A stretch of DNA of 32,000 nt from Trichlorobacter lovleyi SZ (GCF_000020385.1 NC_010814.1:1620001-1652000); one strand, 5' to 3'; counted from the stretch's first letter, positions 2 to 27,816 are shown. The notes: generated by a model not told the origin, from the sequence alone. Program-made: numbers and translations.

Positions 2-478
2 AACCTGCAACCGGATCTGTTGCTGTCCGCCCACTTTAATCAGCTGATCGGATCTGTGTTGCTTGATCTGCCATCAGTTGGTTGTCTGAATATTCACCCC
101 GGAGCGTTGCCGCAGTACAAGGGGGTTGATCCGGTGATTCATGCTCTGGACAGAGATGAACAGCGGGTGGGAGTGACACTGCATGTCCAGGATACCGGTT
201 TTGATACCGGTGCAGTTCTTGCCTCGGCTGAAGCTGCAGTAGCTGCGGAAGATACGTTGTTTTCTGTAACTATGCGGCTTTTCAGGCGGGGGACAGGCCT
301 GCTGCTTGATTGTCTGGCAGCGCATGGAGCTGTCTTGGAAGGGACTCCACAAGAAGCTGACGCTGCCTATGATTCATGGCCGGATAGCGGTTTGGTGGGG
401 CGGCTGAGGAGCTCTGGCAGGAGGTTAATAGGTGTAAGGTTGTTTTGGGTTTGTCTACGGGGCAACAGCCTGGAATAA
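2..478 (+). CDS. formyltransferase-family protein (Fmt/PurN/ArnA-like catalytic domain), 5'-truncated by the window edge
   Basis: Frame 2 is open from nt 2 (NLQPDLLLSAHFNQLIG...). It contains 'LNIHPGALPQYKGVDPV', which matches the formyl-transferase N(I/L)HPSLLPxxRG active-site pattern. Stop at 476-478. Convergent with the AOS gene (10-nt gap). Confidence 0.65.
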   Translation, partial: NLQPDLLLSAHFNQLIGSVLLDLPSVGCLNIHPGALPQYKGVDPVIHALDRDEQRVGVTLHVQDTGFDTGAVLASAEAAVAAEDTLFSVTMRLFRRGTGLLLDCLAAHGAVLEGTPQEADAAYDSWPDSGLVGRLRSSGRRLIGVRLFWVCLRGNSLE

Positions 479-488: not shown

Positions 489-1826
489 TCAGATCTCTTC
501 CGCAAGGATGGCAACGGTTTTCCTGATCTGCTCTTCCGTATGCAGGCATGAGATGAAAAAACGCAGCCGTGCAGATTTCTCCGGCACTGCTGGATAGATG
601 ATCGGCTGAACATTAATGCCACGCTCAAAGAGCGCCTCAGCAAGCCGGGCAGCCTTCAGAGAACTGCCGGTAATTGCCGGTATGATGGCAAGTCCGGCGC
701 TGCTGCCGGTATTGATCCCTGCCTCCTGTGCCAGTTTTAAAAAAAGTTGGCCCCGCGCTTTCAAGGTTGCTGTAAGTTCAGGTGTTTGACGTATAAGCTC
801 AAGGGCTGCCAGTGACGAGGCAGCAACTGAAGGCGGCATGCCGACACTGTAGAGAAAGCCGGGAGCAAGGAACTTGAGATGTTCGATCAGTGCGGTTTCC
901 CCTGCGATATAGCCACCACACCCTGCCAGTGCCTTGCTTAACGTCCCCATCCAGATATCAACGTCGCTCCCCTGCAAAGCAAAATGTTCCCGAATGCCAA
1001 GTCCTTTTTCTCCCATAATGCCGAACGAATGGGCTTCATCCACCATCAAAAAGGCGCAATAGCGTTTTTTTATCTCAACAAAAGCAGGCAGATCGGGATA
1101 ATCGCCATCCATGCTGTAGATTCCTTCAAGTACGATCAATACCCGTTCAAACTGGTGTCGTTGATTTTTCAGGATCTGATCCAGAGCGGTATAATCATTG
1201 TGGGGAAATGACAGCCGTTTGGCGCCTGAAAGCTGTATACCCTGCAGGATACTGTTGTGAATCAGTTCATCGTGGAGTACGAGATCTTTGGGGCCGAACA
1301 GGTAACCGATGGTGGATACGTTGGTGGCGTGACCACTGACAAATGCAATGGCATCATCAACCTGATAGGTCTCTGCAAGGGCTTTTTCAAGTTGCCGGTG
1401 GACAGGACGTTCCCCTGATACGGGGCGGCTGGCAGAAACAGAGGTGCCGTACTGGTCAATCGCCTGTTTGGATGCTTCGGCCACTGCGGGGTGGCCCACA
1501 AGCCCAAGATAGTTGTAGCTGGAATAGTTGATGTATTCTTTGCCGTTAATAACCGTGGTGGCGCCTGCAATACCTTCATGCAGTTTAAAAAAAGGATTGC
1601 TGATGCCAAGACGGACACCGCCATCATTTATTATGCGGAGTTGCTGATAACCGGGATGCAGATGAAAACGATAGAATTTTTCAGGAATTGTTGCTGACTC
1701 TGGTCGTGTGCTGCCGCTTGTAGCGGTTTCCTGGCGTTCTGCAGTTTGTAACCGCCGCTCAAGAGCCTGCAAAATCAGTGCATCTTTAAGTTGGGCGGTA
1801 AGTCCGTGCAATCCTTTACGAGGCAT
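489..1826 (-). CDS. PLP-dependent alpha-oxoamine synthase (BioF/Kbl/Spt/CqsA family acyl-transferring aminotransferase)
   Basis: 445 aa. Motifs: 'NYSSYNYLGL', 'SGHATN', 'MVDEAHSFG', and the PLP-lysine motif 'GTLSKALAGCGGYIAG' (Lys298, nt 933-935). Its ATG (1826) lies 1 nt from the PKS stop codon (1828-1830). Confidence 0.85.
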   Translation of the reverse strand: MPRKGLHGLTAQLKDALILQALERRLQTAERQETATSGSTRPESATIPEKFYRFHLHPGYQQLRIINDGGVRLGISNPFFKLHEGIAGATTVINGKEYINYSSYNYLGLVGHPAVAEASKQAIDQYGTSVSASRPVSGERPVHRQLEKALAETYQVDDAIAFVSGHATNVSTIGYLFGPKDLVLHDELIHNSILQGIQLSGAKRLSFPHNDYTALDQILKNQRHQFERVLIVLEGIYSMDGDYPDLPAFVEIKKRYCAFLMVDEAHSFGIMGEKGLGIREHFALQGSDVDIWMGTLSKALAGCGGYIAGETALIEHLKFLAPGFLYSVGMPPSVAASSLAALELIRQTPELTATLKARGQLFLKLAQEAGINTGSSAGLAIIPAITGSSLKAARLAEALFERGINVQPIIYPAVPEKSARLRFFISCLHTEEQIRKTVAILAEEI

Positions 1827-1827
1827 A

Positions 1828-4800
1828 TTACTGGATCATCCTTTTTTCGTCCGTTGCTGGAGTAGCATACACATCATGTACAATCTGCTCAATAATCTCC
1901 TCCGTGACCTCTGCGCCATGCTGAGAAACCGCCTGCTGAACCGATGCAACAGTTTCCTGGTGCGTACTGTTTTCAGCAATATCCCGGGATGAGGAAAGCT
2001 GGGTAAGCAGATGCTGCGCCAGTTTGGCTATGGTTGGGCTGTCAGTGAGTACCATGACCGGCACCTTGATACCAAATAGTGACTCCAGAGCAACTGCCAG
2101 TTCTACCCCCATTAACGAATCCAGTCCCATATCGGAAAGAAGGCGGTTCGGATCAATTTTAGTCGGATCAATTCTGAGTACCGTGCCTACTTCGTGTTTC
2201 AATAGATCCATGAAGGTTGACAGAATCTCTGTTTCTGAAAGTTCAGCCAACAGTTGCCGTATATCCGGTTTTTGCTCCTGTTGTTCACTGCTGCTGCCGG
2301 CCAGTTGCGAAAGTTTCATGAATTTTGGACTGTTAGCGCTTGGCAGTGAGCGGCTGAGGGTTTTCCAGTCCAGATCAAGTACACCAAGGCCGGACTGGTT
2401 AGCCAACAGCAGCTTTTCCAGCTGATCAAGGGCTGTGGAAGCACTGATCGCTTCACCCCCCAGGCGACTTTGCAGTGCATCCTTGATCTGTTGGTTCTGT
2501 GCAAGGAAGCCGGCGTCATCAATAGGGCTCCAGCCTACGCAAGTGACCGGCAGGCCGCATGTCTGGCGGTGGGCTGCAAATGCCTCAAGCCAATGGTTTG
2601 CCGCTACGTAGTTTCCCTGCCCGGGGTTGCCGAACAGGGTGGTTGCCGATGAAAAAAGGATGAAGTACTTAATCGGCAATTGCTGCGATAGTTCATGTAG
2701 ATAGGTGGCACCGAGTATTTTGGGGGCCAGGACCTGACTGATCTGTTGTTTGTCCATGGCCTTGATCAGGCCGTCCTGGATTACCATTGCGGCATGGACG
2801 ATCCCGGTAAGTGGAGGAAGTGTCTTAGCAATTTCGGCAAACAGCTGTGTCAGTGCAGCTTTTTCGGTGGTATCACATGCAGTGGCATGAACCGTAACGC
2901 CTGATCGTTGCAGTTGGCTGATTGCCTGTTTGGCTTCTTCTGAAACCGGGCCGCTTCGGCTGATAAGCACAAGGTTACGCACCCCTTTTTGCACGAGCCA
3001 TTCAGCGGTTTTAAGTCCAAAACCGCTCAGGCCTCCGGTTATCAGAAAGGTGGCGTCAGGCGGTAAAACGAGACTGCCTGCAGCTGTTTTTGCGTCACAG
3101 GCCGGGACGGTGACCCCGTTTTTATAGGTGACTACGATCTTGCCGATTTGACGTGACTGTTGCATGTATCTGAAGGCATTTACGATGTCGTTGGCATCAA
3201 AGGTCTGGAACGGCAACGGATGGAAAACCCCTTCGGTAAAGAGCGACATAATCTGCTTGAACAGTGTGCGGGTTAGATCCGGGCGTTCCTGCATCAGCTG
3301 GTCGGCATCAATGCCAAAGTAACTGATGTTGTTTCTGAAGGGGCGCAGACCGATGCGGGTATTTTCGTAGTAGTCCCGCTTGCCTAACTCCAGAAACCGT
3401 CCGAACGGTTTGAGTATCCGCAGGTTCCGATTGATCGCTTCGCCGGAAAGGGAGTTCAGCACAACATCAACACCGCTGCCACCTGTCCGGGCCAGTAGTT
3501 CATCAGCAAAATGCAAAGAACGCGAATCATAGATAAAGTCAATTCCAAGCATACGCAGGAAGTCACGCTTTTCATCGGTACCGGCAGTTGCATGGATTTC
3601 AGCTCCGCACCATCGTGCGACCTGAATGGCGGCAATACCGACACCCCCGGCGGCCCCGTGGATCAGTACTTTTTCTCCCGGTGCAACTCTGGCGAGATAA
3701 TGCAGTGCATAAAAACTGGTAAAAAAGGTTGCCGGGATGGTTACGGCAGCTTCAAAGGATAAACCGGCCGGAATGAAGGAGACCGCGTTGGATTTGGTGA
3801 TGACACGATTGCTGAAACAGGCCGGGCCGAACCCCACCAGATGGTCACCGGGGGCAAACTCCTGCACTGACTCTCCAACACGAACAACAGTGCCGGAAAA
3901 TTCCATACCAAGGGTTGGTCCGGCAAAACCGTTTTCAACTGCTTCATCAGACAGCAGGCCAAGGGTGTACATGAAATCGCGGAAATTAAGGCCGGTGGCA
4001 TGGACCTCTATCTCTATTTCATCGCCTTTCGGTGCAGAACCGACGCAGGACTCCCAGCGCAGGTTACGTAGCTGTCCGGGAAACTGGAAGCCCAGGCGGT
4101 AGCAGGGGGAAGCAGCCTGCGGAGACTGTCCTTGGAGGAAGATTGTTGAAGCAGGCAGAAGTTGCAGACGGGTTGCAAAACGTCTGCCGTCAGAGTTGAT
4201 ACATATTTCCTGCTCGTCATCCGGCTGGATAAGCTCTTTTATGAGTGCAGATGCCATTGTCTCAAGATCAGCTGGCATTTCAAGGTCAACCATGCGTATG
4301 GAACCTGAGGGCATTTCATTGATCAGGGTACGTCCCAATCCCCATAGTGCAGCATCGGCTGAAAAATTGACCTTATCGGCATGTCGGGCAGCTGTCTGTA
4401 TCGGCAGCAGATAGCTGGCAGCGTTGGCACTGATTAACCAGCAGGTGGTGCTGGTCTGTGTTGCTTCAGATGCAGCGACAATTGCGGCTGTCGTGGCACA
4501 ACGGTCGGTTTCTCTGGAAAAGTCCGAGATTGGATCATCAAGTGGTTCCGACCGAAAGCCGCTGAGATGGAGAATTCCGGTTAGTACTCCATATGATTTT
4601 TTTATGTTCTGCAACTGATCTGCAATGGCCTCTCTGGAAGTGAGTGTGGAGAGGACAGCCCGCCCTCCAGCGTCCTTGAGCCTGTTTGAAAGCTCATTCG
4701 CCAGCTGGCCTGAATCGCCTTGTTCATCAGACAGGATCAGCCAGACAGCTTCTGTATTTATAAGCAAAGGTGGGGCTGAAACAGGTGCTGCTTCAGGCTT

Positions 4801-7800
4801 GCGGCCAAGTAACAGATACGGACCCGATGAGGCTTTGGGGGATAGTTCATGGCACTCAAGTTCAGTCAGACCTTGCTGTTCCAGCTGTTTCTGCCAGAAA
4901 GCGGGCGGTTGCTGCTGGGATTGCGGTGTTGCCGAACTGCTGTCGCGCCACCAGTCGGTGCGACAGCCAAATACAAAATCGGTCCATCGTGACGGGTGGT
5001 GACCAATGAAGATCACCACTCCTTCCGGGGCCAGATACGTTAATGCGGTACGTATACTATCAGAAGCCGCCTCAATGGTAGGGAAGTCAGACTGTATAAT
5101 TGCCAGATCATACAACCGGCCACCAACAGGCTGTTCAAAGGATGCTGATGGTTCAATCAGCTGAATCTCTGCAGCTGGAAACCGGTCAAGCTGTTGTCGC
5201 GCTTCATCGGCGGTTTCGCCGTTATGAGTTGCAAAGAGATAGCTGCACTGATCGAAATCCAGCAGTTGGCAGATTGCGGAAGCAAAGAGTGGCAGGCCAT
5301 CGCTGACCTCAATGATGCCGAGGCGGCTTCCTGTGGGAAGAGTGGTAAGCCCATTGACAAGCAGCTTGTGCAAGGCATCTTCAATTTTGCTTTTTGCTGC
5401 AGCCCCTAACAGATTCCGGGTAAGGGATGTCAGCGAACCGGGTGCAGGTAGAAACCCTGCGGCACCTGGTTCAGAAAAAAGCTTGTGTAGATGCAGTCCT
5501 ACCTGTGAAACGCTATGGAGGATCGGAAAGTAGTCGGGGTAATCGTGAAACAGGCTGTTCCAGATATCCTGCGCAGCGATACTGTTTGTGTCAGGGGCAG
5601 AGATCTTAAAGCCCGTTTCCGTTGGCGTCAGCAGGGCATCCTGAACCAATAGATCTATCAGGTGTTCAAGATAGCGTGTCTGTCCCGGATTTTTTGAGTG
5701 GAATCCCTGAATTGTTGCGTTGTCAAGTTGTTGCGCCTCATCGGCCAGTGGCTGGAGTGCCTCCAGGGTGAAACGGCTGCAGAGTACATCAAGCAGCGGA
5801 TCAACCTCTTCAGAATAGCATCGATGTGTGCCTTTAAGCACGGCTTGCCTTACTGCCTCACTCATCTCATGCCTGAACAGTTGAAAAGGTAGTGGTGATG
5901 CACAGCGCGGTGTCAACGGATGAGGGCTTGGTATGCTGTGATAGGCCAGAAATCTGAGTCTTGCATCCGTACGTTTGATACTGAGGCGGACAGCACGGAA
6001 ACGAGCTTCCTGAATAATGGCGATTGGTAAGCCTTCGGCATCGGCAATGACGAATTCCGCTGTCAGCGAGTGCGGAGCACGGCGCAGCATTGTCGCCCTG
6101 GCCCGTTGCGGGATGCGTTGGATATCATGCAGGAACAGCCGCCCGATTTTTACCGGGATAAAGATAATGCCGCTCTGCTCGGACAGTTGCTCCTGCATAA
6201 GCTGAAAGATCAACTGGAAGGCACAATCCAGGTAGGCCGGGTGCAGATGGAAGGTGGAGAGGTTAGTGTTATCTGGTGTTTCTTCGGCTTTGTAGATAGC
6301 AGTAACAGTGTTGTTTTCAATCCAACCGGATTTAATGACCTGAAATGCCGGGCCATACCCCAGTCCGGCAGCTGTGGTAAGCTGATGATGTTCTGCGCCG
6401 GAGAAATCCGGAAATCTTTCAGGCAGGGTGATTCGCTGTTCCTGGTGTATCCTGACAGGAGAACCCTGCAGGATTCTTGCTGAGACATGCAGTTCCCATG
6501 GTTCAGTGCTGGTTAATTCCCTGCCTTTGATAGTCAGATCGCCACGGGCTGGATCAACGGCTACGCGAATCAGTTTTGAATGGTTATCTTTAATGAGCAA
6601 AGGGGCATGAATTTCCAGCTCTTCGATCTCACAGTACTCAGCAGGCTGCCAGGCGTGGGAGGCGGCCAATGTCAGTTCGGCAAAACCGGCAGCGGGAAAG
6701 ACAACAGCATCGCCGACCTGATGGTCTGCCAGCAGGGGAATGAGCCGGGTATCAAGTTGGTTTTCCCAGGTAAGCTCATGCTGAGCAAGCCTGTAACCTA
6801 AAAAGGCATGTAGTTTGTAACGGTGCAGTAGACCATATGATTCAGGTGTTACGGTGTGCCAGTACTGTTCCCGCTGCCATGGATAATGGGGCAGTTCCAC
6901 TACGCCAGCTTTTTCAGGGAAGAAAACAGTCCAGTCAATGGGGACGCCGCTGATGATTGTTTGACTTACCGCAGCTGTCATTCTTTGCGGGGTATCATCG
7001 CCACGCATGCCGGTGGTGATGATACGTCCCGGCAGAGCTGTTTCATTCAGGCAGTCCTGCAGGTAGCTGCGCAGGATCGCGTTCGGGCTGATCTCGATAA
7101 AGACGTTCAAGCCGTCTGCAAGCAATTGCTTGATGGTGCGGTCGAATTGAACCGGTTTACGCAGGTTATGCCACCAGTAGGCAGCATCAAGTGCTGTTCC
7201 GTTAAGTTGTCCTCCGGTGACTGTTGAGTAAAACGAGACAGACGCTGTTTGCGGTGCAAGCGAAGCAAGTGCCGAGATAATACCCGGTTCAAGCGGGTCC
7301 ATTGCCGGACTGTGGAAGGCGTAGTCAAGGGCAAGGCGTTTGTTAAATATGTTCCGGTTTGCAAGGGCTGATTCAAGCGCGCTCAATCCCTCAGTCGTTC
7401 CAGCGATCGTAACCCCTTTGCCGCTATTGCTGCCTGCAATCGTCAGGACGTCAGCGAGCCCAAGCGTGAAGAGCAATTGTTGGGCATCAGCTTCTCCTAA
7501 TCCGATTGCGCTCATTTGCCCCTGGCCTTTTGTCGTGCCTTGGAGTTTGCTGCGATGGTAGATAACCCGCACTGCAGCTTCCAGTGACAAGGCGCCAGAT
7601 GCCCAGGCAGCTGCAACTTCACCAACACTGTGGCCGGTGACTGCTGTTGGGCTGACACCACGTTCGTGAAGCATCCGGGTTATGCCGACCTGGATGGCAA
7701 ACAGTGCCGGTTGCGCAATTTCAGTGTCGGCATAGCGGTCAATGCCATACTGTCCGCTCAGCTCTTTTTCAAGAGACCAGTCCGCATACTGAGTGAAGAA

Positions 7801-9471
7801 GAAGTCTATTTCCTGGACAGTTTTAAGAAATAGTGGGTCAGCCAGAAGGGCTTTGCCCATGCCGAACCACTGGGCCCCATTACCGGAGTAAACAAATACT
7901 GGGCCTGCTGGCATTGCCACAGGAGTGCCTGTCAGGATGGTTTCATTATCTAAGAATGTACGCAGTTGCTTGGCTATTTCCGCGTGAGTGCTGCCGAAAA
8001 TAACGCTTTGGTATTCAAATAACTCTCGACGGAAGAGAGCGTTGTAGGTGATGTCATACAAGGGGGTCTGTTGATTGCTATCCAGGTATGCTGCAATGTC
8101 TCTGGCTGATGTTTTTAAGGCATCCATGTTCTTAGCAGAAAGTATCAGAGGGAGCACCTGGAGGCTTACTTTTTTTGAGCTGCTGGCTGAAGGCTCGTAA
8201 CTTTTCAGTACAACGTGGGCGTTAGCCCCCCCGAAACCAAAGGAGTTGACGCCAATAATAATCTCACCGTTCTTGGTAATGGGTCTGCAATCGGTAGCCA
8301 CCTCAATATTCAAATCGTTAAATGGAATTGCCGGGTTGAGCTGGGTAATGCCGATGGTGGCAGGGATGGCACGGTTCTGGATGCACAGCAGTGCCTTAAC
8401 CAGGCCAGCGACACCTGCGGCTGACTCAAGATGCCCCAGATTGCTTTTAACAGAGCCGATGAGCAGTGGCTTTCCTTCGGGGCGCTGTTTGCCCAATGCT
8501 TCACCAATAGCCTGCACTTCTATGGGGTCGCCAACAGTAGTACCGGTGCCATGTGCCTCAATGTAGTCAATCTCTGCAGGCGCTATGCCGGCTCGCAGAT
8601 AGGCTTGCTTCAAGAGGGTTGACTGAGCTTTTGCACTTGGTACGGTCAAACCTGATTTCCGGCCATCCGTATTGACTGCAGAGGCAGCCACTACAGCCAG
8701 TATCTGGTCTCCATCAGCCACAGCCTGATTGTACTCTTTCAGCAGAAACAGGCCGGCACCTTCAGAGCGGACATAGCCATCGCATGCTGCGTCAAACACG
8801 TTGCAATGGCCTTGTTTAGACAGCATGGATGCCTTAGAAAAAGCAACAAATGTATACGGGTGTAGGTGCAGGCTGACCCCTCCTGCCAAGGCCATACTGC
8901 TTTCGCCTGATGCTATGGATACACAAGCTTGGTGAAAGGCAACCAACGAGGATGAGCAGGCTGTATCGATTGCCATACTGGGACCGTGCAGGTCAAAGAA
9001 GTACGAGAGGCGATTTGCGGCAATGCTTGAGGTGTTTCCTGTCCCGGAAGAGGAGTCGATCGCTGCGAGATCGTCAGTGAGGCGAAAGGCATAGTCGATA
9101 TTCGAAACTCCAATATAGACGCCGCATCGGCTACCCCTTAAGGATGAAGGTTTTATTCCGGCGTGTTCACAAGCTTCCCAGCCAAGCTCTAGTAACAGGC
9201 GTTGTTGAGGATCCATGACAGCAGCTTCACGTGGAGAAATACCAAAAAAACCTGCGTCAAAGAGTGAAACATCGCCAATTGGGCCGGCTGTGAAGGAGTA
9301 ACTGGCTCCGGGGTGATCCTTGTCTGGATGATAAAATGTTTCCTGGCTCCAACGGTTATTCGGAACACTTGTTACCAGATCACGACCTTGTAACAGGTCG
9401 TTCCAGAACGCTTCTTGAGTAGTGTTGGGCAGTCTGAATGAAAATCCAATGATGGCAACAGTTGGTGGCAT
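1828..9471 (-). CDS. type I polyketide synthase, FAS/MAS-like fully reducing single module: KS-AT-DH-(degenerate MT)-psiKR-ER-KR-ACP, no thioesterase
   Basis: 2547 aa. KS: 'DTACSSSL' (Cys172), 'EAHGTGT', 'KSNLGH', about nt 8197-9465. AT: 'GHSVGE' (Ser614) and 'YAFHS', about 6982-7902. DH: 'HQVGDAVVFP', 'GYGPAF', 'LDCAFQ', about 5977-6819. MT-like region without GxGxG: 'IIEVSDGLP', about 4792-5874. ER: 'LIHGAAGGVGIAA', about 3127-4089. KR: 'ITGGLSGFG', 'GQGNYVAAN', about 2512-3054. ACP: 'GLDSLMG' (Ser2452, nt 2116-2118). AGGA lies 5 nt upstream of the ATG. Confidence 0.95.
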   Translation of the reverse strand: MPPTVAIIGFSFRLPNTTQEAFWNDLLQGRDLVTSVPNNRWSQETFYHPDKDHPGASYSFTAGPIGDVSLFDAGFFGISPREAAVMDPQQRLLLELGWEACEHAGIKPSSLRGSRCGVYIGVSNIDYAFRLTDDLAAIDSSSGTGNTSSIAANRLSYFFDLHGPSMAIDTACSSSLVAFHQACVSIASGESSMALAGGVSLHLHPYTFVAFSKASMLSKQGHCNVFDAACDGYVRSEGAGLFLLKEYNQAVADGDQILAVVAASAVNTDGRKSGLTVPSAKAQSTLLKQAYLRAGIAPAEIDYIEAHGTGTTVGDPIEVQAIGEALGKQRPEGKPLLIGSVKSNLGHLESAAGVAGLVKALLCIQNRAIPATIGITQLNPAIPFNDLNIEVATDCRPITKNGEIIIGVNSFGFGGANAHVVLKSYEPSASSSKKVSLQVLPLILSAKNMDALKTSARDIAAYLDSNQQTPLYDITYNALFRRELFEYQSVIFGSTHAEIAKQLRTFLDNETILTGTPVAMPAGPVFVYSGNGAQWFGMGKALLADPLFLKTVQEIDFFFTQYADWSLEKELSGQYGIDRYADTEIAQPALFAIQVGITRMLHERGVSPTAVTGHSVGEVAAAWASGALSLEAAVRVIYHRSKLQGTTKGQGQMSAIGLGEADAQQLLFTLGLADVLTIAGSNSGKGVTIAGTTEGLSALESALANRNIFNKRLALDYAFHSPAMDPLEPGIISALASLAPQTASVSFYSTVTGGQLNGTALDAAYWWHNLRKPVQFDRTIKQLLADGLNVFIEISPNAILRSYLQDCLNETALPGRIITTGMRGDDTPQRMTAAVSQTIISGVPIDWTVFFPEKAGVVELPHYPWQREQYWHTVTPESYGLLHRYKLHAFLGYRLAQHELTWENQLDTRLIPLLADHQVGDAVVFPAAGFAELTLAASHAWQPAEYCEIEELEIHAPLLIKDNHSKLIRVAVDPARGDLTIKGRELTSTEPWELHVSARILQGSPVRIHQEQRITLPERFPDFSGAEHHQLTTAAGLGYGPAFQVIKSGWIENNTVTAIYKAEETPDNTNLSTFHLHPAYLDCAFQLIFQLMQEQLSEQSGIIFIPVKIGRLFLHDIQRIPQRARATMLRRAPHSLTAEFVIADAEGLPIAIIQEARFRAVRLSIKRTDARLRFLAYHSIPSPHPLTPRCASPLPFQLFRHEMSEAVRQAVLKGTHRCYSEEVDPLLDVLCSRFTLEALQPLADEAQQLDNATIQGFHSKNPGQTRYLEHLIDLLVQDALLTPTETGFKISAPDTNSIAAQDIWNSLFHDYPDYFPILHSVSQVGLHLHKLFSEPGAAGFLPAPGSLTSLTRNLLGAAAKSKIEDALHKLLVNGLTTLPTGSRLGIIEVSDGLPLFASAICQLLDFDQCSYLFATHNGETADEARQQLDRFPAAEIQLIEPSASFEQPVGGRLYDLAIIQSDFPTIEAASDSIRTALTYLAPEGVVIFIGHHPSRWTDFVFGCRTDWWRDSSSATPQSQQQPPAFWQKQLEQQGLTELECHELSPKASSGPYLLLGRKPEAAPVSAPPLLINTEAVWLILSDEQGDSGQLANELSNRLKDAGGRAVLSTLTSREAIADQLQNIKKSYGVLTGILHLSGFRSEPLDDPISDFSRETDRCATTAAIVAASEATQTSTTCWLISANAASYLLPIQTAARHADKVNFSADAALWGLGRTLINEMPSGSIRMVDLEMPADLETMASALIKELIQPDDEQEICINSDGRRFATRLQLLPASTIFLQGQSPQAASPCYRLGFQFPGQLRNLRWESCVGSAPKGDEIEIEVHATGLNFRDFMYTLGLLSDEAVENGFAGPTLGMEFSGTVVRVGESVQEFAPGDHLVGFGPACFSNRVITKSNAVSFIPAGLSFEAAVTIPATFFTSFYALHYLARVAPGEKVLIHGAAGGVGIAAIQVARWCGAEIHATAGTDEKRDFLRMLGIDFIYDSRSLHFADELLARTGGSGVDVVLNSLSGEAINRNLRILKPFGRFLELGKRDYYENTRIGLRPFRNNISYFGIDADQLMQERPDLTRTLFKQIMSLFTEGVFHPLPFQTFDANDIVNAFRYMQQSRQIGKIVVTYKNGVTVPACDAKTAAGSLVLPPDATFLITGGLSGFGLKTAEWLVQKGVRNLVLISRSGPVSEEAKQAISQLQRSGVTVHATACDTTEKAALTQLFAEIAKTLPPLTGIVHAAMVIQDGLIKAMDKQQISQVLAPKILGATYLHELSQQLPIKYFILFSSATTLFGNPGQGNYVAANHWLEAFAAHRQTCGLPVTCVGWSPIDDAGFLAQNQQIKDALQSRLGGEAISASTALDQLEKLLLANQSGLGVLDLDWKTLSRSLPSANSPKFMKLSQLAGSSSEQQEQKPDIRQLLAELSETEILSTFMDLLKHEVGTVLRIDPTKIDPNRLLSDMGLDSLMGVELAVALESLFGIKVPVMVLTDSPTIAKLAQHLLTQLSSSRDIAENSTHQETVASVQQAVSQHGAEVTEEIIEQIVHDVYATPATDEKRMIQ

Positions 9472-9786: not shown

Positions 9787-10125
9787 ATGAGCCGTTTTCT
9801 GGTCTCGCTCGGCTATGCGCTGGAAGGCATCAGGTTCGGCATCAAGACCCAGCGGCATCTCAGATTTCATCTGGTTGCCGCCTGCCTGGCCCTGGCTGCC
9901 GGTCTCTGGAAAGGGCTGCAGCCTGTTGCATGGGGCCTGCTTGTACTGTTGATTGCTGCGGTAGTTGCTGCTGAGCTGATAAATACCGCCATAGAGGCGG
10001 TGGTTGATCTGGTTTCTCCCTTACCGCATCCTCTGGCCAAGGCGGCCAAGGATACTGCTGCCGGGGCAGTGCTGGTGCTGGCTGCTGCTGCCCTGGTTAT
10101 TGCTGTTGTGTTGTTCTGCTGTTGA
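9787..10125 (+). CDS. dgkA: diacylglycerol/undecaprenol kinase (DgkA family small membrane kinase)
   Basis: 112 aa with three hydrophobic helices. Contains 'AELINTAIEAVVDLV' and 'AKDTAAGAVLV', which are characteristic DgkA motifs. Confidence 0.85.
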   Translation: MSRFLVSLGYALEGIRFGIKTQRHLRFHLVAACLALAAGLWKGLQPVAWGLLVLLIAAVVAAELINTAIEAVVDLVSPLPHPLAKAAKDTAAGAVLVLAAAALVIAVVLFCC

Positions 10126-10142: not shown

Positions 10143-11384
10143 CTACCTGTCTTTTCTTGGTACCACCACAATGCCTGATTCGGTGATGGTATAGCCGTTC
10201 TTGATGTCATCTTCATGATTGCAGCCAATCTCGGCTCCATCCGGAATGACTACCCCCTTATCGATAATCGCCTTTTTGATCTTTACGTGCCGTCCTACGG
10301 TAACCCCTTCGAACAGGATGGAGTCTTCCACCAGGCTGTAGCTGTTGATCTTGCACATCGGCCCCAGGATTGAGCGGCGAACGGTGCTGCCGCTGGTGAT
10401 GCAGCCGCCGGTGACGTAGGAGTCGATATTGACGCCGCGGCGGCCTTCTTCGTCAAAGACGGTCTTGGCCGGCGGCAGGTTGCCCTGGTTGGTCAGGATC
10501 GGCCACTTGTAGTTGTAGAGGTTCAGCTGAGGTGAAACATGGATCAGGTCCATGTTGGCCTCGTAGTAGGAATCCAGCGTACCCACATCCTTCCAGTAGC
10601 CCCGTTCTTCCGATTTCATCCCCGGCACCAGGTTGTCATTGAAGTTGTAGGCATAGATCCGGTCACCCTTTTCCAGCATCATCGGGATGACGTGCTTGCC
10701 GAAATCCAGGTCTTCATAGTGCTTTTTACCTTCCAGCAGGACTTCGATCAGCTTGCGGGTGGGAAAGATATAGTTGCCCATGGAGGCAAAGCAGGTTTCG
10801 CGGCCCGGTATGGTTTCAGGATCTTTCGGTTTTTCTGTAAAGGCGGTGACGCGGTTGTCGTCATCGACAGAGAAGACCCCGAAGCGGCTGGCCTCTTCTT
10901 TGGGCACCTCCAGGGAGGCGATGGTAAGGTCGGCACGGTTCATACGGTGGAACTGGATCATCTGGGTTACATCCATCTTGTAGATATGATCGCCGCCAAA
11001 GACCGCCACATAGTCTGCATCAGCGGTTTCCACAAAGCGCAGGTATTGCAGGATGGCGTCTGCGGTACCCTTGAACCACTGTTCACTGTCGCTGCTGGTC
11101 TCCGGTGAGATGGCTACGCAGAACTCTCCCAGACCGGTCCATTTGCCCCATGATTCACGAATATGCTTGTTGAGTGAGTAGGCCCGGTACTGGGTCAGGA
11201 TGTACATTCGCCTGATGCCGGAGTTGAAGAGGTTACTCAAGACAAAGTCAATGATCTTGTATTTGCCGCCAAAGGTGACGCTGGGCTTGGCGCGGCGCAG
11301 GGTCAGGGGCATCAGCCGTTCTCCTTTGCCGCCTGCCAGCACCATGGCAATGGTATTTCTGCCAAGATTTGATCCGTCGAACAT
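10143..11384 (-). CDS. glgC: glucose-1-phosphate adenylyltransferase
   Basis: 'IAMVLAGGKGERLMPLTLRRAKPSVTFGGKYKIIDFVLSNLFNSGI' is the canonical GlgC N-terminus, and a C-terminal left-handed beta-helix region follows. I place the start at ATG 11384 (MFDGSN...), preceded by AAAGGAGC. The longer track ORF (to 11690) runs across the upstream hairpin and overlaps the neighbouring gene. Confidence 0.9.
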   Translation of the reverse strand: MFDGSNLGRNTIAMVLAGGKGERLMPLTLRRAKPSVTFGGKYKIIDFVLSNLFNSGIRRMYILTQYRAYSLNKHIRESWGKWTGLGEFCVAISPETSSDSEQWFKGTADAILQYLRFVETADADYVAVFGGDHIYKMDVTQMIQFHRMNRADLTIASLEVPKEEASRFGVFSVDDDNRVTAFTEKPKDPETIPGRETCFASMGNYIFPTRKLIEVLLEGKKHYEDLDFGKHVIPMMLEKGDRIYAYNFNDNLVPGMKSEERGYWKDVGTLDSYYEANMDLIHVSPQLNLYNYKWPILTNQGNLPPAKTVFDEEGRRGVNIDSYVTGGCITSGSTVRRSILGPMCKINSYSLVEDSILFEGVTVGRHVKIKKAIIDKGVVIPDGAEIGCNHEDDIKNGYTITESGIVVVPRKDR

Positions 11385-11489
11385 GGGAAGCTCCTTTTTG
11401 CAGTCTCTGATTGCTCTTAGCTTATCCTTTAGCCGTAAGCTGTCAAGCATGCAAGCCTGATTTTTCCAGAAAGAGTGCTGCGAGGAAGG

Positions 11490-11516
11490 GCAAGGGCAGG
11501 AGAGTCCTGCCCTTGC
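11490..11516 (-). terminator. perfect 11-bp stem / 5-nt loop hairpin, 17 nt downstream of the Spy/CpxP-like gene
   Basis: gcaagggcagg-agagt-cctgcccttgc, with the two arms exact reverse complements. There is no strong U-tract directly after the stem on the minus strand, so terminator function is uncertain. Confidence 0.45.
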
Positions 11517-11532
11517 ATCATGAGAAGTGCTG

Positions 11533-11955
11533 CTACTGATTGCGTGGTGGCGGGAAGAGAGATCTGATACGTGCCTGGGTGCGGAGATGCGAGAGCAGCA
11601 GCTCTGTCTGCAGTTCCGACTGAAGCTTTGCCAGTGCCGTAACCGCGGCCTCATCAAACGGCTCCCGGTCTGCTGCCTGCCGTAAGGCATGCCGGTTTTC
11701 TTCCATTTTCTGTAAAATTCCTGCAGCGTGGTCCCGTTCTTTTTTGAGTAGCTGCTCCAGTTGCGTCTGTTGCTCCCCGGTCAGTTGCGGCATTGCCCTC
11801 ATCCTGTGATGTTCTGGTCCCGGTAAAGGCGGATGAGGCCGGCAATCCGGCGGTGGCGGCGGCAAGAGTGTCTCAGGGCATCCCTCTGCCTGTACGGTTG
11901 AACCTCCCAGTAGTAATCCTGTTCCCAATAGTGCTGCAAACAGCCGCATTACCAT
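11533..11955 (-). CDS. periplasmic Spy/CpxP/ZraP-family (LTxxQ) protein
   Basis: 140 aa. Signal peptide 'MVMRLFAALLGTGLLLGGSTVQA'. One LTxxQ motif ('LTGEQQTQL') sits in an otherwise helical, charged protein. A Pro/Cys/His-rich segment follows the signal peptide. GGAG RBS upstream. Confidence 0.6.
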   Translation of the reverse strand: MVMRLFAALLGTGLLLGGSTVQAEGCPETLLPPPPPDCRPHPPLPGPEHHRMRAMPQLTGEQQTQLEQLLKKERDHAAGILQKMEENRHALRQAADREPFDEAAVTALAKLQSELQTELLLSHLRTQARIRSLFPPPRNQ

Positions 11956-12080: not shown

Positions 12081-12968
12081 TCAGGAAAGCACGTTCACTG
12101 ATTGCGTGCTACTGCTGGAACTTGAACTGTTCTTCAGCATTTTCAACAGGGCGGCAAGGCTGTTCTGGTCGACATTCTGGAGAAACGAGGCCAGGGCGTC
12201 CTGCTGAGAGCTGCTGTCCTGATCAGAGCTGTCATCGGTCTTGGCCATCTGTGGTGGCGGCGGTGGCGGTCCCATGCTCTTCATCATGCTGTCCATCTCA
12301 TCGCTGTTGAGAGAACCGTCGCTGTCGCTGTCATACTGGGTAATCAATGCAGAGGCGTCCTGTGACTGACCGGTCATCTCTGCCATTTTATCCAGCATGG
12401 TCTGCAGTTCGTCAGATGAAACGGCGCCGCTGCTGTCACTATCCACTTTCTTGAACATCTCTTCCGGACTTGGCGGTGGCGGAGGCGGCCCTTGCTTGCC
12501 GCCTATGGCCGAACTGCTGCCGGTTGAGCTGTCTTCACTCTCTGATGATGAACTTTGCATCTGCTGCAGCATGCTGATCAGGCTTGAAACCAGATCCTGA
12601 CCGGAGTTTGACAGGTACGAGGCCAGCGAAGTGGTGTCAAGCCCGCTGGACTGACTGCTGGACTCTTCTTCATTGCTCATCATGGCATCACGCTCATGCT
12701 TCGGCTTGATGCTTTCCATCAGACTGTTCATTTCGTCTTCGCCCAGAGAACCGTCGCTGTTGCTGTCGTACTGAGAGAGCAGTGATGAGGCATCCAGTGT
12801 TTTGCCGCTGTCCTGAGAGATCTTGTCTGTCAGAGCCGTTAATTCAGTCTGTGAAATGCCGCCGTTGCCGTCGCTGTCAACTTTGCTGAAGAGATCCTGT
12901 TTTCTCTTCTGCTGCTCAATGCTGTACATGCTGCTTATGCTGCTGCTGATACTACTGATGCTGCTCAT
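12081..12968 (-). CDS. EF-hand calcium-binding protein, Ser/Pro-rich, with an internal tandem duplication
   Basis: 295 aa. Four canonical 12-residue EF loops: DSDGNGGISQTE, DSNSDGSLGEDE, DSDSSGAVSSDE, DSDSDGSLNSDE. Two GPPPPPP runs and Ser runs. AAAGGAGG RBS. Confidence 0.8.
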   Translation of the reverse strand: MSSISSISSSISSMYSIEQQKRKQDLFSKVDSDGNGGISQTELTALTDKISQDSGKTLDASSLLSQYDSNSDGSLGEDEMNSLMESIKPKHERDAMMSNEEESSSQSSGLDTTSLASYLSNSGQDLVSSLISMLQQMQSSSSESEDSSTGSSSAIGGKQGPPPPPPSPEEMFKKVDSDSSGAVSSDELQTMLDKMAEMTGQSQDASALITQYDSDSDGSLNSDEMDSMMKSMGPPPPPPQMAKTDDSSDQDSSSQQDALASFLQNVDQNSLAALLKMLKNSSSSSSSTQSVNVLS

Positions 12969-13246: not shown

Positions 13247-14353
13247 ATGTTTGACGATATAAAGATTCTGGCTGTGGATGATGACAACTTCAACCTGCAG
13301 ATTATCCAGGCCATGCTGGAAGGGGTCTCGTCCACCATCTACACCGCCTTAGACGGTCAGCAGGCGCTCGATCTGCTGGAGGCGACACCGGGTATCGATA
13401 TTGTGTTGCTCGATCTGCAGATGCCGGTCATGGATGGTTTTGAGACCCTGCAGCGGATCAAGCTCAACTTCAGGTTGATGAAAATACCGGTCATCGTGGT
13501 TACCGCCGATCAACAAGAAGTGACCAAGGTACTGGGGTTGGGGGCTAACGACTTTCTTGCAAAGCCGTTTAACCCGGAGGAACTGCGACTGCGGGTGATG
13601 AACCACGTCCGTAACAAACGCTATCAGGATCTGATCAGCAACATGAATGTGGTGCTTGAACAGAAGGTGGCAGAAAAAACAGCTGCCCTGCAAGCGGCCC
13701 TTTCTTTGTCCCAGGAGGCTGAATACGAAATCTGTCTGCGGCTGGGCCGCGCTGCTGAATTCCGGGATATGGAAACCGGCATGCATACCCGCCGTATCAG
13801 CGAAATGTCGAAAACCCTGGCACTTCTGGCCGGACTTTCGGAAGAGCAGGCCGAGCTGCTCCGGTTTGCTTCGCCGCTGCATGACGTGGGCAAGATCGGT
13901 ATACCGGACCGGATACTGCTCAAACCTGGTAAGCTGGATGATACCGAGATGCAGATCATGAAGCTGCATACCACCATCGGCGGGAGAATCCTGTCTGACG
14001 GTGAGCGTTTTCATTCCCTTGAGGCAGGCCGGATTGTGGCGCTGCAGCACCATGAAAAATGGGATGGCAGCGGCTACCCGGCCGGTTTGCAGGGTGAAGC
14101 GATTCATATCTTTGCCCGGATTGTGATGATTACCGATATCTTTGATGCGCTTGCCTCGGACCGCCCTTACAAGAAGGCCTTCCCGATTGAAAAAATCCTG
14201 ACCATCATGGAAGAGGGGAGCGGAATATTTTTTGATCCCCGGTTGCTGCAACTCTTTCTGGATAACCTGCAGCAGTTCATCGCTATCCGTGACCGGCTGA
14301 AGGATCAGCAGGACGAGGTTGATCCATTGCTGGAGTTGCTTACTATTACCTGA
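13247..14353 (+). CDS. response regulator with HD-GYP output domain (RpfG-type c-di-GMP phosphodiesterase)
   Basis: 368 aa. REC: 'ILAVDDD', 'DIVLLDLQMPVMDG' (Asp56), 'KPF'. HD-GYP: 'HDVGKIGIPD', 'HHEKWDGSGYP'. AGGAGGAG RBS. Confidence 0.9.
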   Translation: MFDDIKILAVDDDNFNLQIIQAMLEGVSSTIYTALDGQQALDLLEATPGIDIVLLDLQMPVMDGFETLQRIKLNFRLMKIPVIVVTADQQEVTKVLGLGANDFLAKPFNPEELRLRVMNHVRNKRYQDLISNMNVVLEQKVAEKTAALQAALSLSQEAEYEICLRLGRAAEFRDMETGMHTRRISEMSKTLALLAGLSEEQAELLRFASPLHDVGKIGIPDRILLKPGKLDDTEMQIMKLHTTIGGRILSDGERFHSLEAGRIVALQHHEKWDGSGYPAGLQGEAIHIFARIVMITDIFDALASDRPYKKAFPIEKILTIMEEGSGIFFDPRLLQLFLDNLQQFIAIRDRLKDQQDEVDPLLELLTIT

Positions 14354-14367
14354 TTCAGGAGGTCTGT

Positions 14368-15168
14368 ATGTCAATTCGATCCTGCTGTATCCGTCCCTTG
14401 TTGTTGTTGCTGTTGCTCGTGTCGGCCCAGGCACCTGCAACGGTTTTTGCCGCTCCGTCCGGGAACAACCTGTTGATTTATTGCGGAATCACCATGGTAC
14501 GTCCGGTAACCGATATTGCCCGTCTGTTTGAGAAACAGGAAAAGATCAGCATTGCCGTTGCCCAGGGAGGGTCGGAAGATCTGTACCAGAGTGCTAAAAA
14601 GAGCCAGCAGGGAGATCTATACCTCCCGGGTGAGCCGGTCTTCCGGATCAGGCACCAGTCAGAGGGGCTGCTTGGGGAGTATCGCGGGCTGGGCTTTAAC
14701 CAGATGGCACTGATGGTTCAGAAAGGCAATCCCAAGAAGGTAAAACCGGATCTGAAAGAACTGCTGCGCAAGGATCTGAGCGTGGTGCTGGGCAGCAGTG
14801 AAAGCGGCAGCGTCGGTGTTGAGGCACGTCGGATTCTGACCCAGGCGGGACTTTATCCCAAGGTTGCTGCCAAGGTGGTCCAGATGTTGCCGGACTCCCG
14901 TTCGATCATGGCAGCCATGCGGCGGGGGGATGCCGACGTCACCATGAGCTGGCGTGCCACCGGCTATTTTCCGGATAATGCTGCTTCCGTTGATGTGCTG
15001 GATCTGCCGCCAGCCGTTGCCCCGCCGCAGGAGTTACAGTTGACCCTGTTGACCTTCTCAAAGAATCCGGTTATGGCGCGCAAATTTATGGCATTTGCCG
15101 CAGGTCCGCAGGGACAGGCGATTTTCCGCCGCTACGGCTTTATTACAGCCGTCAAATCAGGGCAGTAA
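14368..15168 (+). CDS. periplasmic substrate-binding protein, ModA/type-2 PBP-like (no transporter genes adjacent)
   Basis: 266 aa. Signal peptide '...LLLLLLLVSAQAPATVFA'. 'LLIYCGITMVRPVTDIARLFEKQ...AQGGSEDLYQSAKKSQQGDLYLPGE' resembles the N-lobe pattern of molybdate/tungstate/sulfate binding proteins. Lies 14 nt after the RR gene and 6 nt before the first kinase. Confidence 0.65.
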   Translation: MSIRSCCIRPLLLLLLLVSAQAPATVFAAPSGNNLLIYCGITMVRPVTDIARLFEKQEKISIAVAQGGSEDLYQSAKKSQQGDLYLPGEPVFRIRHQSEGLLGEYRGLGFNQMALMVQKGNPKKVKPDLKELLRKDLSVVLGSSESGSVGVEARRILTQAGLYPKVAAKVVQMLPDSRSIMAAMRRGDADVTMSWRATGYFPDNAASVDVLDLPPAVAPPQELQLTLLTFSKNPVMARKFMAFAAGPQGQAIFRRYGFITAVKSGQ

Positions 15169-15174
15169 GGCGTA

Positions 15175-20900: not shown

Positions 20901-21593
20901 GTAGTGCTGGCTGGCAATGGCAAAGAAGCATTGGAGCTTCTGCATATGATTCCGGTTGATCTTGTGCTGATGGACTGCCAGATGCCGGTCATGGACGGTT
21001 TTGAAGCCACCCGCCGTATCAGGGCCGGCGAGGCCGGTGAGCAGAACCGGCTGCTTCCGGTGCTGGCCATGACCGCCCATGCCTTTGCGGAGGACAGAGA
21101 GCGCTCCCGCGCGGCAGGTATGGATGACTACCTGACCAAACCGGTGCAACTGACAACCTTGTCCAAGGCCGTCACTACCTGGCAGGGGCGGCATCATGGC
21201 GTCGGTCATGCACCTGCACCGGATGAAACATCAGTACCTCCTGTGGAACACGCCCCAACTGGCATCTTCGATCAGGATGGCCTTCTGTCTCGTCTGGATG
21301 GAGATCATGAGCTGGCAGCAGCAACAATCAACATCTTTCTTGACGGTGTTGAGGACCTAATGGTGGGGTTAAGCCATGCCCTGGAGTCTCGCGATCGTAA
21401 TGCTATTGCCATGCAGGCCCATGGACTGCGAGGGGCTGCCTTGAATTGTGGCGCCGACAAAGTTACAGCAGTGGCCCAACGGCTCGAATATCAGGTTCGT
21501 GAAGGCCATCTTGAAGGTACTGAACAGTTGCTGAACGAATTAAGGCATGAGATTCGCCTCTACTGTCAAACCGTGCAGCATTTGAAGCGGTAG
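17994..21593 (+). CDS. hybrid sensor histidine kinase (polytopic N-terminal membrane domain, periplasmic Cache-like domain, PAS, HisKA-HATPase-REC-Hpt)
   Basis: 1199 aa. Its ATG overlaps the upstream stop (ATGA at 17994-17997). About 6 hydrophobic helices in aa 1-190. A second TM lies near nt 19375-19445. H-box His702 (nt 20097-20099). '[10 protein letters not shown]'. REC: '[13 protein letters not shown]'. Hpt: '[12 protein letters not shown]'. Confidence 0.9.
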
Positions 21594-21618
21594 CATCTTT
21601 GCTTACAAAGGAAACAGC

Positions 21619-24737: not shown

Positions 24738-24795
24738 TAATGTAACTCACTGCTTTCAGACAAAATCCGTCACCGTAGAAGGAGGCAGCCTGAAC

Positions 24796-27814: not shown

Positions 27815-27816
27815 CC

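Follow-up and report, generated by a model that had tools for sequence, protein, structure and literature searches.

What does a fully reducing polyketide synthase (PKS) make when it has no release domain of its own and is followed at once by an α-oxoamine synthase (AOS), and what part of the cell does the product serve? The question is raised by a stretch of the Trichlorobacter lovleyi SZ genome (GCF_000020385.1, NC_010814.1:1620001-1652000; 32,000 nucleotides, hereafter the window), near the left edge of which two genes encode such a pair. A first-pass annotation had described a single reducing module of 2547 aa with an AOS gene starting 1 nt after its stop, and the coordinates, strand and junction were all confirmed. 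The same annotation had proposed that the PKS, which lacks a thioesterase (TE), works iteratively and that the AOS releases its chain as a sphingoid-type 2-amino-3-keto lipid; this is the chemistry shown for the orthologous SgaA/SgaB system of Pseudomonas fluorescens (Peters et al., 2025, PMC12134224). The explanation that best accounts for the locus as a whole, and which is considered probable, is an SgaAB-type sphingolipid module that feeds a capsule anchor.

Relationship to the SgaA/SgaB system

The window is best read as carrying the Trichlorobacter orthologue of the SgaA/SgaB module, and hence a catalogued member of a published family, not a new one. In P. fluorescens MYb115, sgaAB encode an iterative type I PKS and an AOS that are needed for the formation of C24, C26 and C28 sphinganines (Peters et al., 2025, PMC12134224), as well as for species heavier by 154 Da, assigned as phosphoglycerol sphingolipids. 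Knock-out of sgaB abolishes the PKS-dependent lipid, and 13C/15N-serine label is incorporated into the sphingolipids in vivo (PMC12134224). Purified PfSgaB forms an external aldimine with L-serine and condenses serine with acyl-CoAs to 3-ketodihydrosphinganines, with a near-exclusive preference for serine over alanine and glycine; SgaC, a nearby short-chain dehydrogenase/reductase (SDR), is the proposed 3-keto reductase (PMC12134224). The 6101 homologous clusters reported in that study include 3452 from Burkholderia, 319 from Bordetella, 241 from Sinorhizobium, 26 from Cobetia and 2 from Trichlorobacter (PMC12134224, Supplementary Dataset 4), so that the novelty implied by the first-pass annotation falls away.

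The AOS of the window is 68% identical to PfSgaB over 438 aa, a value that may be slightly too low, as the PfSgaB sequence was obtained by optical character recognition of the published supplement PDF. PfSgaC shares 48% identity over 256 aa with an SDR whose gene lies left of the window. The likeness to SgaA/SgaB(/SgaC) extends to gene organization, with a monomodular iterative PKS, then an AOS, and an SDR homologous to 3-ketodihydrosphingosine reductase (KDSR) in the locus. The hosts differ, MYb115 being a Pseudomonas and T. lovleyi an anaerobic member of the Desulfuromonadia, and so does the tailoring gene after the AOS, which is of the formyltransferase family in T. lovleyi, whereas Pseudomonas loci have genes for a PhyH-like dioxygenase and a GNAT protein. 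T. lovleyi further differs from Pseudomonas in its single-domain KpsC-like protein and in the adjoining genes for synthesis of 3′-phosphoadenosine-5′-phosphosulfate (PAPS).

A genome scan limited to one genome per species returned at least 571 relatives of the AOS, the best 80 of which (63-89% identical) were taken further. These 80 reside in Trichlorobacter, Bordetella, Achromobacter, Pseudomonas, Accumulibacter, Sulfuriferula, Thiobacillus, methanotrophs and others, the nearest named relative (89% identity) belonging to a Trichlorobacter metagenome-assembled genome. Of the 76 loci in which the upstream DNA sufficed, 75 have a homologous PKS C-terminus directly upstream of the AOS; over 77 orthologous loci, the two genes are mostly spaced by -4 to +10 nt. 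In T. lovleyi they meet as CAG-TAA-T-ATG, and an AAGGA is placed 12 nt before the AOS ATG (Table 1). To the published description of the family, the present analysis adds this near-constant adjacency, the relatives of the AOS that form C-terminal domains of larger proteins, and the embedding of the pair among KpsS/KpsC-type capsule genes or genes for Kdo (3-deoxy-D-manno-octulosonic acid).

Domain architecture of the PKS

Pfam and sequence searches against solved structures (PDB) resolve the order KS-AT-DH-ψCMT-ψKR-ER-KR-ACP in one polypeptide, which with its full reducing loop and one ACP (Pfam) constitutes a single module. No TE, reductase (R) or condensation (C) domain that could serve in release was detected by Pfam over the whole 2547 aa. 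The catalytic residues that the first-pass annotation had named in KS, AT, DH, ER, KR and ACP all occupy the positions given for them (Table 1). Across 65 full-length orthologues the catalytic motifs are invariant or nearly so, those of the KS in 64-65 of the 65, and the PKS is therefore not a chance open reading frame (ORF). The DH motif has its Gly at +3, not +4.

By an established rule, HAFH marks malonyl-specific and YASH methylmalonyl-specific AT domains, the Phe being the malonyl-type determinant. The YAFHS of the present AT, part of a DYAFHS motif that is a hallmark of the family (61/65 orthologues), is a hybrid of the two signatures, malonyl-type in its Phe and of the other type in its Tyr; it had earlier been read as malonyl-type.

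The 630 residues separating DH from ER give no Pfam match. Within them, aa ~1261-1538 match the C-methyltransferase (C-MT) of CurJ (5thy, E=9.4e-12) in the search of solved structures, but the S-adenosylmethionine motif LLEIGAGTG of CurJ is IIEVSDGLP in the PKS and the catalytic His of VLHAT is lost. C-MT motif I is degenerate in 65/65 orthologues. With the C-MT dead, unbranched chains are therefore expected. This domain of ~280 aa had been overlooked when the order was first likened to that of animal fatty acid synthase (FAS), and its recognition makes the likeness closer than claimed. By its architecture, the PKS is best classed with the iterative, fully reducing synthases resembling animal FAS and mycocerosic acid synthase, the latter being its closest solved structure (E=3.7e-273). 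Animal FAS differs in possessing a C-terminal TE, while fungal highly reducing PKSs have the domain order in common with the PKS of the window. Among bacterial relatives, the PKS of Pseudomonas plasmid pL21564-1 is 47.5% identical over the full length and that of Sinorhizobium meliloti rkp-1 34%. The first-pass annotation had rightly placed the ACP near a C-terminus without a release domain; the tail beyond the Pfam ACP measures 59 aa, however, rather than about 55. It is weakly conserved save for its ...R-M-I-Q/H end, and possibly serves as a docking element.

Table 1. Positions of the PKS, the AOS and adjoining features in the window
Feature	Coordinates	Strand	Residues and motifs	Basis
Formyltransferase-family gene, 3′ end, cut by window edge	2-478	+	last 158 of 274 codons	Pfam Formyl_trans_N
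AOS (SgaB/WcbT/RkpG-type, serine-palmitoyltransferase-like), pyridoxal 5′-phosphate (PLP) enzyme	489-1826	-	445 aa	ORF, Pfam, NCBIfam, alignments
Conserved N-terminal helix of AOS	1746-1805	-	aa 8-27 (GL..LK..LIQQ.LER)	conservation, AlphaFold2 (AF2)
Coupling junction	1824-1843	-	AAGGA 1839-1843; PKS stop TAA 1828-1830; one base 1827; AOS ATG 1824-1826	sequence
PKS (SgaA/WcbR/RkpA-type, iterative fully reducing type I)	1828-9471	-	2547 aa	ORF call, Pfam, motif check
PKS C-terminal tail	1831-2007	-	59 aa beyond Pfam ACP	orthologue comparison
ACP	2008-2205	-	aa 2423-2488; S2452 in GLDSL	Pfam, motifs
KR domain	2518-3054	-	aa 2140-2318; TGGLSGFG, Y2288 (GQGNYVAAN)	Pfam, motifs
ER domain	3127-4077	-	about aa 1799-2115 (Pfam 1817-2114); GAAGGVGIAA, GGVG at 1942	Pfam, motifs
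Degenerate C-methyltransferase (ψCMT)	4858-5691	-	about aa 1261-1538 (~280 aa)	PDB sequence search
DH domain	5986-6810	-	aa 888-1162; H917...P926, D1082 (DCAFQ)	Pfam, motifs
AT domain	7024-7899	-	aa 525-816; GHSVGE at 613, YAFHS at 717	Pfam, motifs
KS domain	8347-9462	-	aa 4-375; C172 (DTACSSS), H307 (EAHGTG), H347 (LGHLE)	Pfam, motifs
glgC	10143-11690	-	genuine glucose-1-phosphate adenylyltransferase, housekeeping

Family placement of the AOS

Pfam and NCBIfam assign the AOS to the α-oxoamine synthase group of class I/II PLP enzymes, with Lys298 (TLSK) as the PLP lysine and with the usual His190 and Asp263/His266. Its best match among the NCBIfam equivalogs is bioF (TIGR00858), at 347.8 bits below the cut-off of 426.45. 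The scores for Kbl (NF005394, 309.6 against 460; TIGR01822, 259.3 against 493), for three serine palmitoyltransferase (SPT) models (292.7, 270.3 and 213.4 against 640, 500 and 670) and for 5-aminolevulinate synthase (ALAS; 236 against 339) also stay below their cut-offs, and that for CqsA/LqsA (NF005526, 156.7 against 428) is the weakest among the functional AOS models. Nor do solved structures single out one family: those of Kbl, BioF/Kbl and SPT match the AOS equally well (E about 1e-60 to 1e-63), with SphA among the distant matches. On these comparisons the AOS is neither BioF, Kbl, canonical Spt nor CqsA; its scores below the BioF and Kbl cut-offs leave the first-pass proposal unrefuted, and its nearest relatives are the C-terminal AOS domains of assembly lines.

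These relatives were sought among 1.84 billion cluster representatives at 50% identity. The nearest 150 examined are 47-59% identical to the AOS, and 127 of them are multidomain proteins of at least 700 aa, in 121 of which the AOS occupies the extreme C-terminus behind PKS or FAAL-ACP modules. Complete KS-AT-DH-ER-KR-ACP-AOS fusions are found as well (P0305, P0316), and together these proteins provide Rosetta-stone evidence that enzymes of this clade take carrier-protein-bound chains. The complete fusions are proteins of ~2600 aa from uncultured bacteria; P0316, at 10001-17812 of L087/L088, apparently belongs to a separate, uncharacterised amino-lipid route.

At its N-terminus the AOS carries a conserved helix that has no Pfam match and no counterpart in solved BioF/Kbl/SPT structures, alignments to which begin at residue 72-101. 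Conservation in this segment is 0.65, as against 0.14 in the variable linker of 14-27 aa that follows it. The AF2 model places a helix at residues 11-31 (predicted local distance difference test score about 55) and disorder at 29-45, and alignments to the fused relatives extend back to AOS residue 17-21, thereby covering the ACP-AOS linker of those proteins. The helix may therefore represent a docking or linker element, or a remnant, to which the AF2 model lends weak support.

Canonical bacterial Spt (Sphingomonas, Bacteroides, Caulobacter) resembles the AOS in PLP chemistry and, to judge from PfSgaB, in its amino acid; the match of the AOS to solved SPTs is at ~1e-60. Whereas canonical Spt takes its acyl chain from acyl-CoA or from a discrete ACP of primary fatty-acid metabolism, the AOS of the window has a dedicated PKS donor and the extra N-terminal helix. 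It appears, then, to work like SPT yet to fall outside the canonical SPT clades. Glycine had been suggested as a substrate by the YPAVP loop of the AOS, which we take to resemble the YPxVP of KBL/ALAS more than the RPPATP of SPT, and was rejected on the strong preference of the 68%-identical PfSgaB for L-serine over glycine and alanine.

A further likeness is to the fungal Fum1/Fum8/Fum13 (fumonisin) and SphB/SphA/SphF (sphingofungin) pathways, in which the PKS is likewise iterative, highly reducing and TE-less, has a C-MT position, and is combined with release by an AOS and a KDSR-type 3-ketoreductase, a comparison also drawn for SgaAB (PMC12134224). The fungal pathways differ in being eukaryotic, in having an active C-MT, in using alanine or aminomalonate and in making toxins rather than envelope lipids, and they are remote in sequence.

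Gene surroundings in T. lovleyi

The genes left of the window were ordered from two identical loci, L001 and L002, which are covered as far as CysD, 10 kb to the left of the AOS. Beyond the PKS and AOS genes, the opposite strand encodes the formyltransferase-family protein, a PF00884 protein, the SDR (about 1.9 kb left of the window edge), KpsS-like and KpsC-like proteins, a GT4 enzyme, a KpsD/Wza-like exporter, CysNC and CysD. The first-pass annotation had pointed to this flank as the place to look for tailoring enzymes, and the SDR, the PF00884 protein and capsule genes are indeed encoded there. It had also considered a link with the formyltransferase-family gene, rating it as weak. The gene is real, and its context strengthens the link, as it is the last gene of an operon, convergent to PKS-AOS, that includes the SgaC-like SDR and the LtaS-like, KpsS/KpsC-like, GT4 and KpsD-like genes. 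The encoded protein keeps the catalytic Asn-x-His (LNIHPG) and Asp (DTG), and in many other loci the AOS is followed by a homologue (35-43% identity) or by a CAT-like acyltransferase. It is a candidate N-formylase of the sphingoid amine.

The N-terminal third of the PF00884 protein is strongly hydrophobic, with multiple transmembrane segments, and the C/SxPxR sulfatase motif is absent. The Pseudomonas homologue is labelled 'LTA synthase family protein' by the annotation pipeline PGAP, and the protein looks like a phospho-head-group transferase of the LtaS/OpgB/EptA type rather than a sulfatase. The KpsC-like protein (346 aa) matches the solved β-Kdo transferase domain of KpsC (6mgd) at 5e-83. 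For the KpsS-like protein there is a Pfam Capsule_synth match and a score of 291 bits with the NCBIfam KpsS model (cut-off 600), and the PDB search found no solved homologue. A single Kdo-transferase domain is present in the T. lovleyi KpsC-like protein (L001 15701-16741), in comparison with two domains in 650-710 aa in Bordetella (L085 12225-14288) and Pseudomonas (L090 16411-18540), which hints at a shorter or uniform Kdo linker. The operon is closed by the PAPS-synthesis genes CysNC and CysD (L001 19221-21338); no sulfotransferase was seen in the T. lovleyi DNA covered left of the window.

Capsule association in other bacteria

Neighbouring genes in other loci were detected by tblastn with the T. 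lovleyi proteins, and frequencies refer to the 51 long loci with at least 18 kb covered. Genes resembling KpsS/KpsC, KpsD, KpsM or KpsT occur in 35 of these, an SDR in 25 and a PF00884 gene in 23, and the whole gene set is present in Sulfuriferula. Two loci (L004, L052) contain ABC-2 transporter genes. Bordetella hinzii has PKS-AOS-KdsA-KpsC-KpsS in one direction and Paraburkholderia caballeronis PKS-AOS-KdsA-KpsF-GNAT. In a Burkholderia sp., genes for a UDP-sugar dehydrogenase, for GT2 enzymes and for an ABC-2 transporter come after PKS-AOS.

A further block (L090 6473-29227) is on plasmid pL21564-1 of Pseudomonas sp. TMW 2.1634 and comprises PKS, AOS, a PhyH-like dioxygenase, a KpsC-like protein, GNAT, an LtaS-like protein, SDR, a KpsS-like and a second KpsC-like protein, a phosphotransferase, KpsF, KdsB and KdsA. 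This plasmid is mobilizable (MOBP) and 99.7 kb long, and the sphingolipid-plus-Kdo block lies beside an IS5 transposase, which suggests that the module moves horizontally as a unit. The gene right after the AOS in Pseudomonas (L033 12764-13807, L090 15378-16421), absent from this position in T. lovleyi, encodes a PhyH-family (phytanoyl-CoA dioxygenase-like) enzyme that could hydroxylate the sphingoid base in the phyto-type manner.

Sinorhizobium meliloti has the same six-gene set in synteny, at much greater divergence: an exporter, a PKS of 2502 aa (34% identity), an AOS (49%) whose start overlaps the PKS stop by 4 nt, an SDR (24%), a PF00884 protein (32%) and a KpsS-like protein (39%), with KpsF nearby. 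This set is presumably the rkp-1 region (rkpU-rkpA-rkpG-rkpH-rkpI-rkpJ), the literature on which dates to the 1990s. One review credits the rkp-1 products with making and modifying 'a specific lipid carrier' for K-antigen, and states that poly-Kdo secretion requires them (PMC4881576). In Burkholderia pseudomallei, WcbR is described as the 'fatty acid synthase' of the locus for capsular polysaccharide (CPS) I, and its loss lowers capsule (PMC3735121, PMC7858667). In B. thailandensis, wcbT-wcbO homologues border another polysaccharide cluster (PMC2945791), as would be expected of a generic module, and wcbT has been named in Bordetella capsule loci (PMC5045587). In Cobetia, wcbPQRT beside kpsSC and PAPS genes are referred to as 'lipid carrier biosynthesis', about which little is known, and the PAPS genes of the sulfated Cobetia marina capsule occur in the same combination as in T. 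lovleyi (PMC11766843).

On literature naming and synteny, the module corresponds to wcbR/wcbT of Burkholderia and Bordetella and to the PKS and AOS of Sinorhizobium rkp-1. The wcb capsule loci (wcbR/wcbT, with wcbP, wcbQ and wcbO) are of the ABC-transporter type, and their type I PKS (~2500 aa), AOS, SDR, LtaS-like protein and KpsS/KpsC homologues have a proposed role in synthesis of the capsule lipid; in B. pseudomallei, wcbS intervenes between wcbR (BPSL2789) and wcbT (BPSL2787), whereas the PKS and AOS genes of T. lovleyi are 1 nt apart. There is also a likeness to the group 2 capsules of Escherichia coli and Neisseria, the established terminus of which is (lyso)phosphatidylglycerol-poly-β-Kdo built by KpsS and KpsC. 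KpsS-like, KpsC-like and KpsD-like genes are found here, and KdsA, KdsB and KpsF in relatives, beside PKS and AOS; the prototype group 2 loci, in contrast, are without PKS, AOS and SDR, and no sphingoid anchor has been reported in the searchable literature.

Proposed pathway

The first part of the pathway, namely chain building, release with serine and ketone reduction, is very probable in view of the orthology with SgaABC. The AT would load malonyl units and the KS condense them, with KR, DH and ER reducing fully in each round and the module working iteratively as animal FAS does. Because there is no thioesterase, the chain is expected to stay on the single ACP; iteration and chain length, corresponding to sphinganines of C24-C28 in total, are extrapolated from the orthologue. 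The AOS, with L-serine on its PLP (Lys298), would then attack the acyl thioester and decarboxylate to yield a very-long-chain 3-ketodihydrosphinganine, as predicted from its 68% identity to PfSgaB, and gene coupling and the fused PKS-AOS relatives lead us to infer that off-loading takes place directly from the ACP. The SDR would reduce the ketone to give sphinganine.

What follows is more tentative. The amine may be capped by the formyltransferase-family enzyme, in the place of which other lineages have a CAT-like or GNAT acyltransferase, and the membrane-embedded, LtaS/OpgB-like PF00884 enzyme is a candidate for adding the phosphoglycerol head group seen in MYb115; that both modifications occur as drawn is given somewhat less than an even chance. 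The product, sphinganine-1-phosphoglycerol, would mimic lyso-phosphatidylglycerol and could act as acceptor for the KpsS/KpsC-like β-Kdo transferases, on which an ABC-transporter-type and possibly sulfated capsular polysaccharide would be built. From the gene context, the chances that sphinganine-1-phosphoglycerol is the Kdo acceptor and capsule anchor appear close to evenly balanced. Extended to B. pseudomallei CPS-I, the Bordetella cap loci, rhizobial K-antigens, Cobetia/Halomonas, Pseudomonas and Trichlorobacter, with the MYb115 lipids as anchor precursors and an N-formylated amine in T. lovleyi, the anchor proposal is a shade less secure.

Alternative explanations

It could be that the sphingolipids are free membrane lipids or secreted metabolites and that the capsule genes belong to a separate system that merely shares an island or regulation with the pair, a possibility to which we assign a substantial but minor probability. 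Several observations tend in that direction or weigh against the favoured pathway. Free sphinganines and phosphoglycerol sphingolipids were detected in MYb115 and are framed as free secondary metabolites, with a host phenotype and no capsule phenotype or involvement reported; moreover, the phosphoglycerol head group was proposed from exact mass only, and the PfSgaB assays used acyl-CoAs rather than SgaA-ACP (PMC12134224). Deletion of wcbR reduces CPS-I without abolishing it (PMC3735121, PMC7858667), and the lipid is therefore not strictly required there. For the kpsSC-containing Bordetella cap loci, the Whitfield laboratory assumed a phosphatidylglycerol-Kdo terminus and did not mention the PKS (PMC8760489). 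In the genomic data, 16 of the 51 long loci show no capsule hallmark in the covered flanks, the fused PKS-AOS relative at L087/L088 is preceded by a phosphopantetheinyl transferase and a free-standing ACP and has no capsule genes nearby, and neither KpsM nor KpsT was seen within 10 kb left of the T. lovleyi AOS, where the pathway as a whole is predicted from gene content. The order of the last two steps is a further difficulty, as enzymes of the LtaS/OpgB type act on the periplasmic face and KpsS/KpsC in the cytoplasm. Set against a mere sharing of an island are the recurrence of the capsule association in Desulfuromonadia and in Beta-, Gamma- and Alphaproteobacteria, with differing gene orders and polymer genes; the co-operonic arrangement of PKS-AOS with KdsA, KpsF and KpsC/KpsS; the capsule phenotypes of wcb and rkp-1 mutants; and the mobilizable plasmid on which sphingolipid, Kdo-supply and Kdo-transferase genes form one block.

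A diffusible α-hydroxyketone or amino-ketone signal of the CAI-1/LAI-1 type, which the first-pass annotation had offered as an alternative, might be suggested by the membership of CqsA/LqsA in the AOS family and by the wealth of sensor kinases in the window; it is nevertheless extremely unlikely, given the 157 bits of the AOS with a CqsA/LqsA model that requires 428, the lack of an adjacent CqsS-like partner, the C24-C28 sphinganines that the orthologue makes from L-serine, and the presence in the locus of a ketoreductase and of lipid and polysaccharide enzymes. Scarcely more probable is that the PKS contributes only a very-long-chain fatty acid of unusual kind to a glycerolipid anchor, such as an acyl chain of (lyso)phosphatidylglycerol, while the AOS serves an unrelated purpose, in biotin or threonine metabolism for example. 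For S. meliloti poly-Kdo a C28 hydroxy-fatty-acid phosphoglycerol anchor has been proposed, WcbR is called a 'fatty acid synthase' in older annotation, and bioF is the best NCBIfam match of the AOS. Yet a thioesterase that could free a fatty acid is lacking, the AOS scores under both the bioF and the Kbl cut-offs, it adjoins the PKS almost without exception and is fused to it in relatives, and its 68%-identical counterpart PfSgaB has been shown to act as an SPT.

Implications

In itself, the PKS-AOS cassette is unremarkable, being orthologous to a system published in 2025, and interest lies in its capsule context. What has been written on rkp-1, on wcb and on sga appears to concern a single module, without cross-citation in the searchable literature: the SgaAB paper contains no mention of capsule, kps, Kdo or wcb (PMC12134224), and no paper combining oxoamine synthase, polyketide synthase and capsular polysaccharide was found in the searchable literature. 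If the capsule-anchor proposal is correct, many 'group 2/3-like' capsules would be anchored by sphingolipids, not glycerophospholipids, and the current picture of KpsS/KpsC initiating on (lyso)phosphatidylglycerol would have to be revised. It would then be clear what the 'specific lipid carrier' of rkp-1 and wcb is, and the role of wcbR/wcbT in a major virulence factor and vaccine antigen of melioidosis would be explained. Sphingolipid production would also reach environmental anaerobes such as Trichlorobacter.

Other features of the window

To the right of the PKS lies glgC, which was excluded from the locus as a genuine glucose-1-phosphate adenylyltransferase gene; as a housekeeping gene, it indicates that the locus ends at the PKS start. 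Its mechanical ORF of 515 aa exceeds the 413 aa given by gene callers, and the extra 102 N-terminal codons, which overlap the end of a 140-aa LTXXQ/metal-resistance ORF (11533-11955), are probably untranslated. Between PKS and glgC is a gene for a DgkA-family prokaryotic diacylglycerol kinase (9787-10125, + strand), divergent from the PKS over a 315-nt spacer. DgkA recycles the diacylglycerol left by phosphoglycerol transfer of the LtaS/OpgB type and would fit the PF00884 enzyme; it was not counted as part of the module, however, as it adjoins the PKS only in T. lovleyi loci.

Scans for Rfam families, tRNAs, tandem repeats, promoters and terminators gave nothing relevant in the window. A protein of 295 aa with several canonical EF-hand calcium-binding motifs (Pfam EF-hand_1, E=1e-17), unusual in bacteria, is encoded at 12081-12968 (- strand). 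It is followed by a signalling block (13247-24606, + strand) made up of a response regulator with an HD-GYP-type HD domain, a periplasmic solute-binding protein and three consecutive hybrid histidine kinases of 940, 1199 and 995 aa, which have receiver and Hpt domains; several starts in this block overlap the previous stop. Two ORFs have no Pfam match, one at 31182-31679 and one of 214 aa (24676-25320) that precedes the hydrogenase genes. The latter form a NiFe-hydrogenase cluster (24676-29044, + strand) encoding small and large subunits, a 2x[4Fe-4S] ferredoxin and a HycI-type maturation protease.

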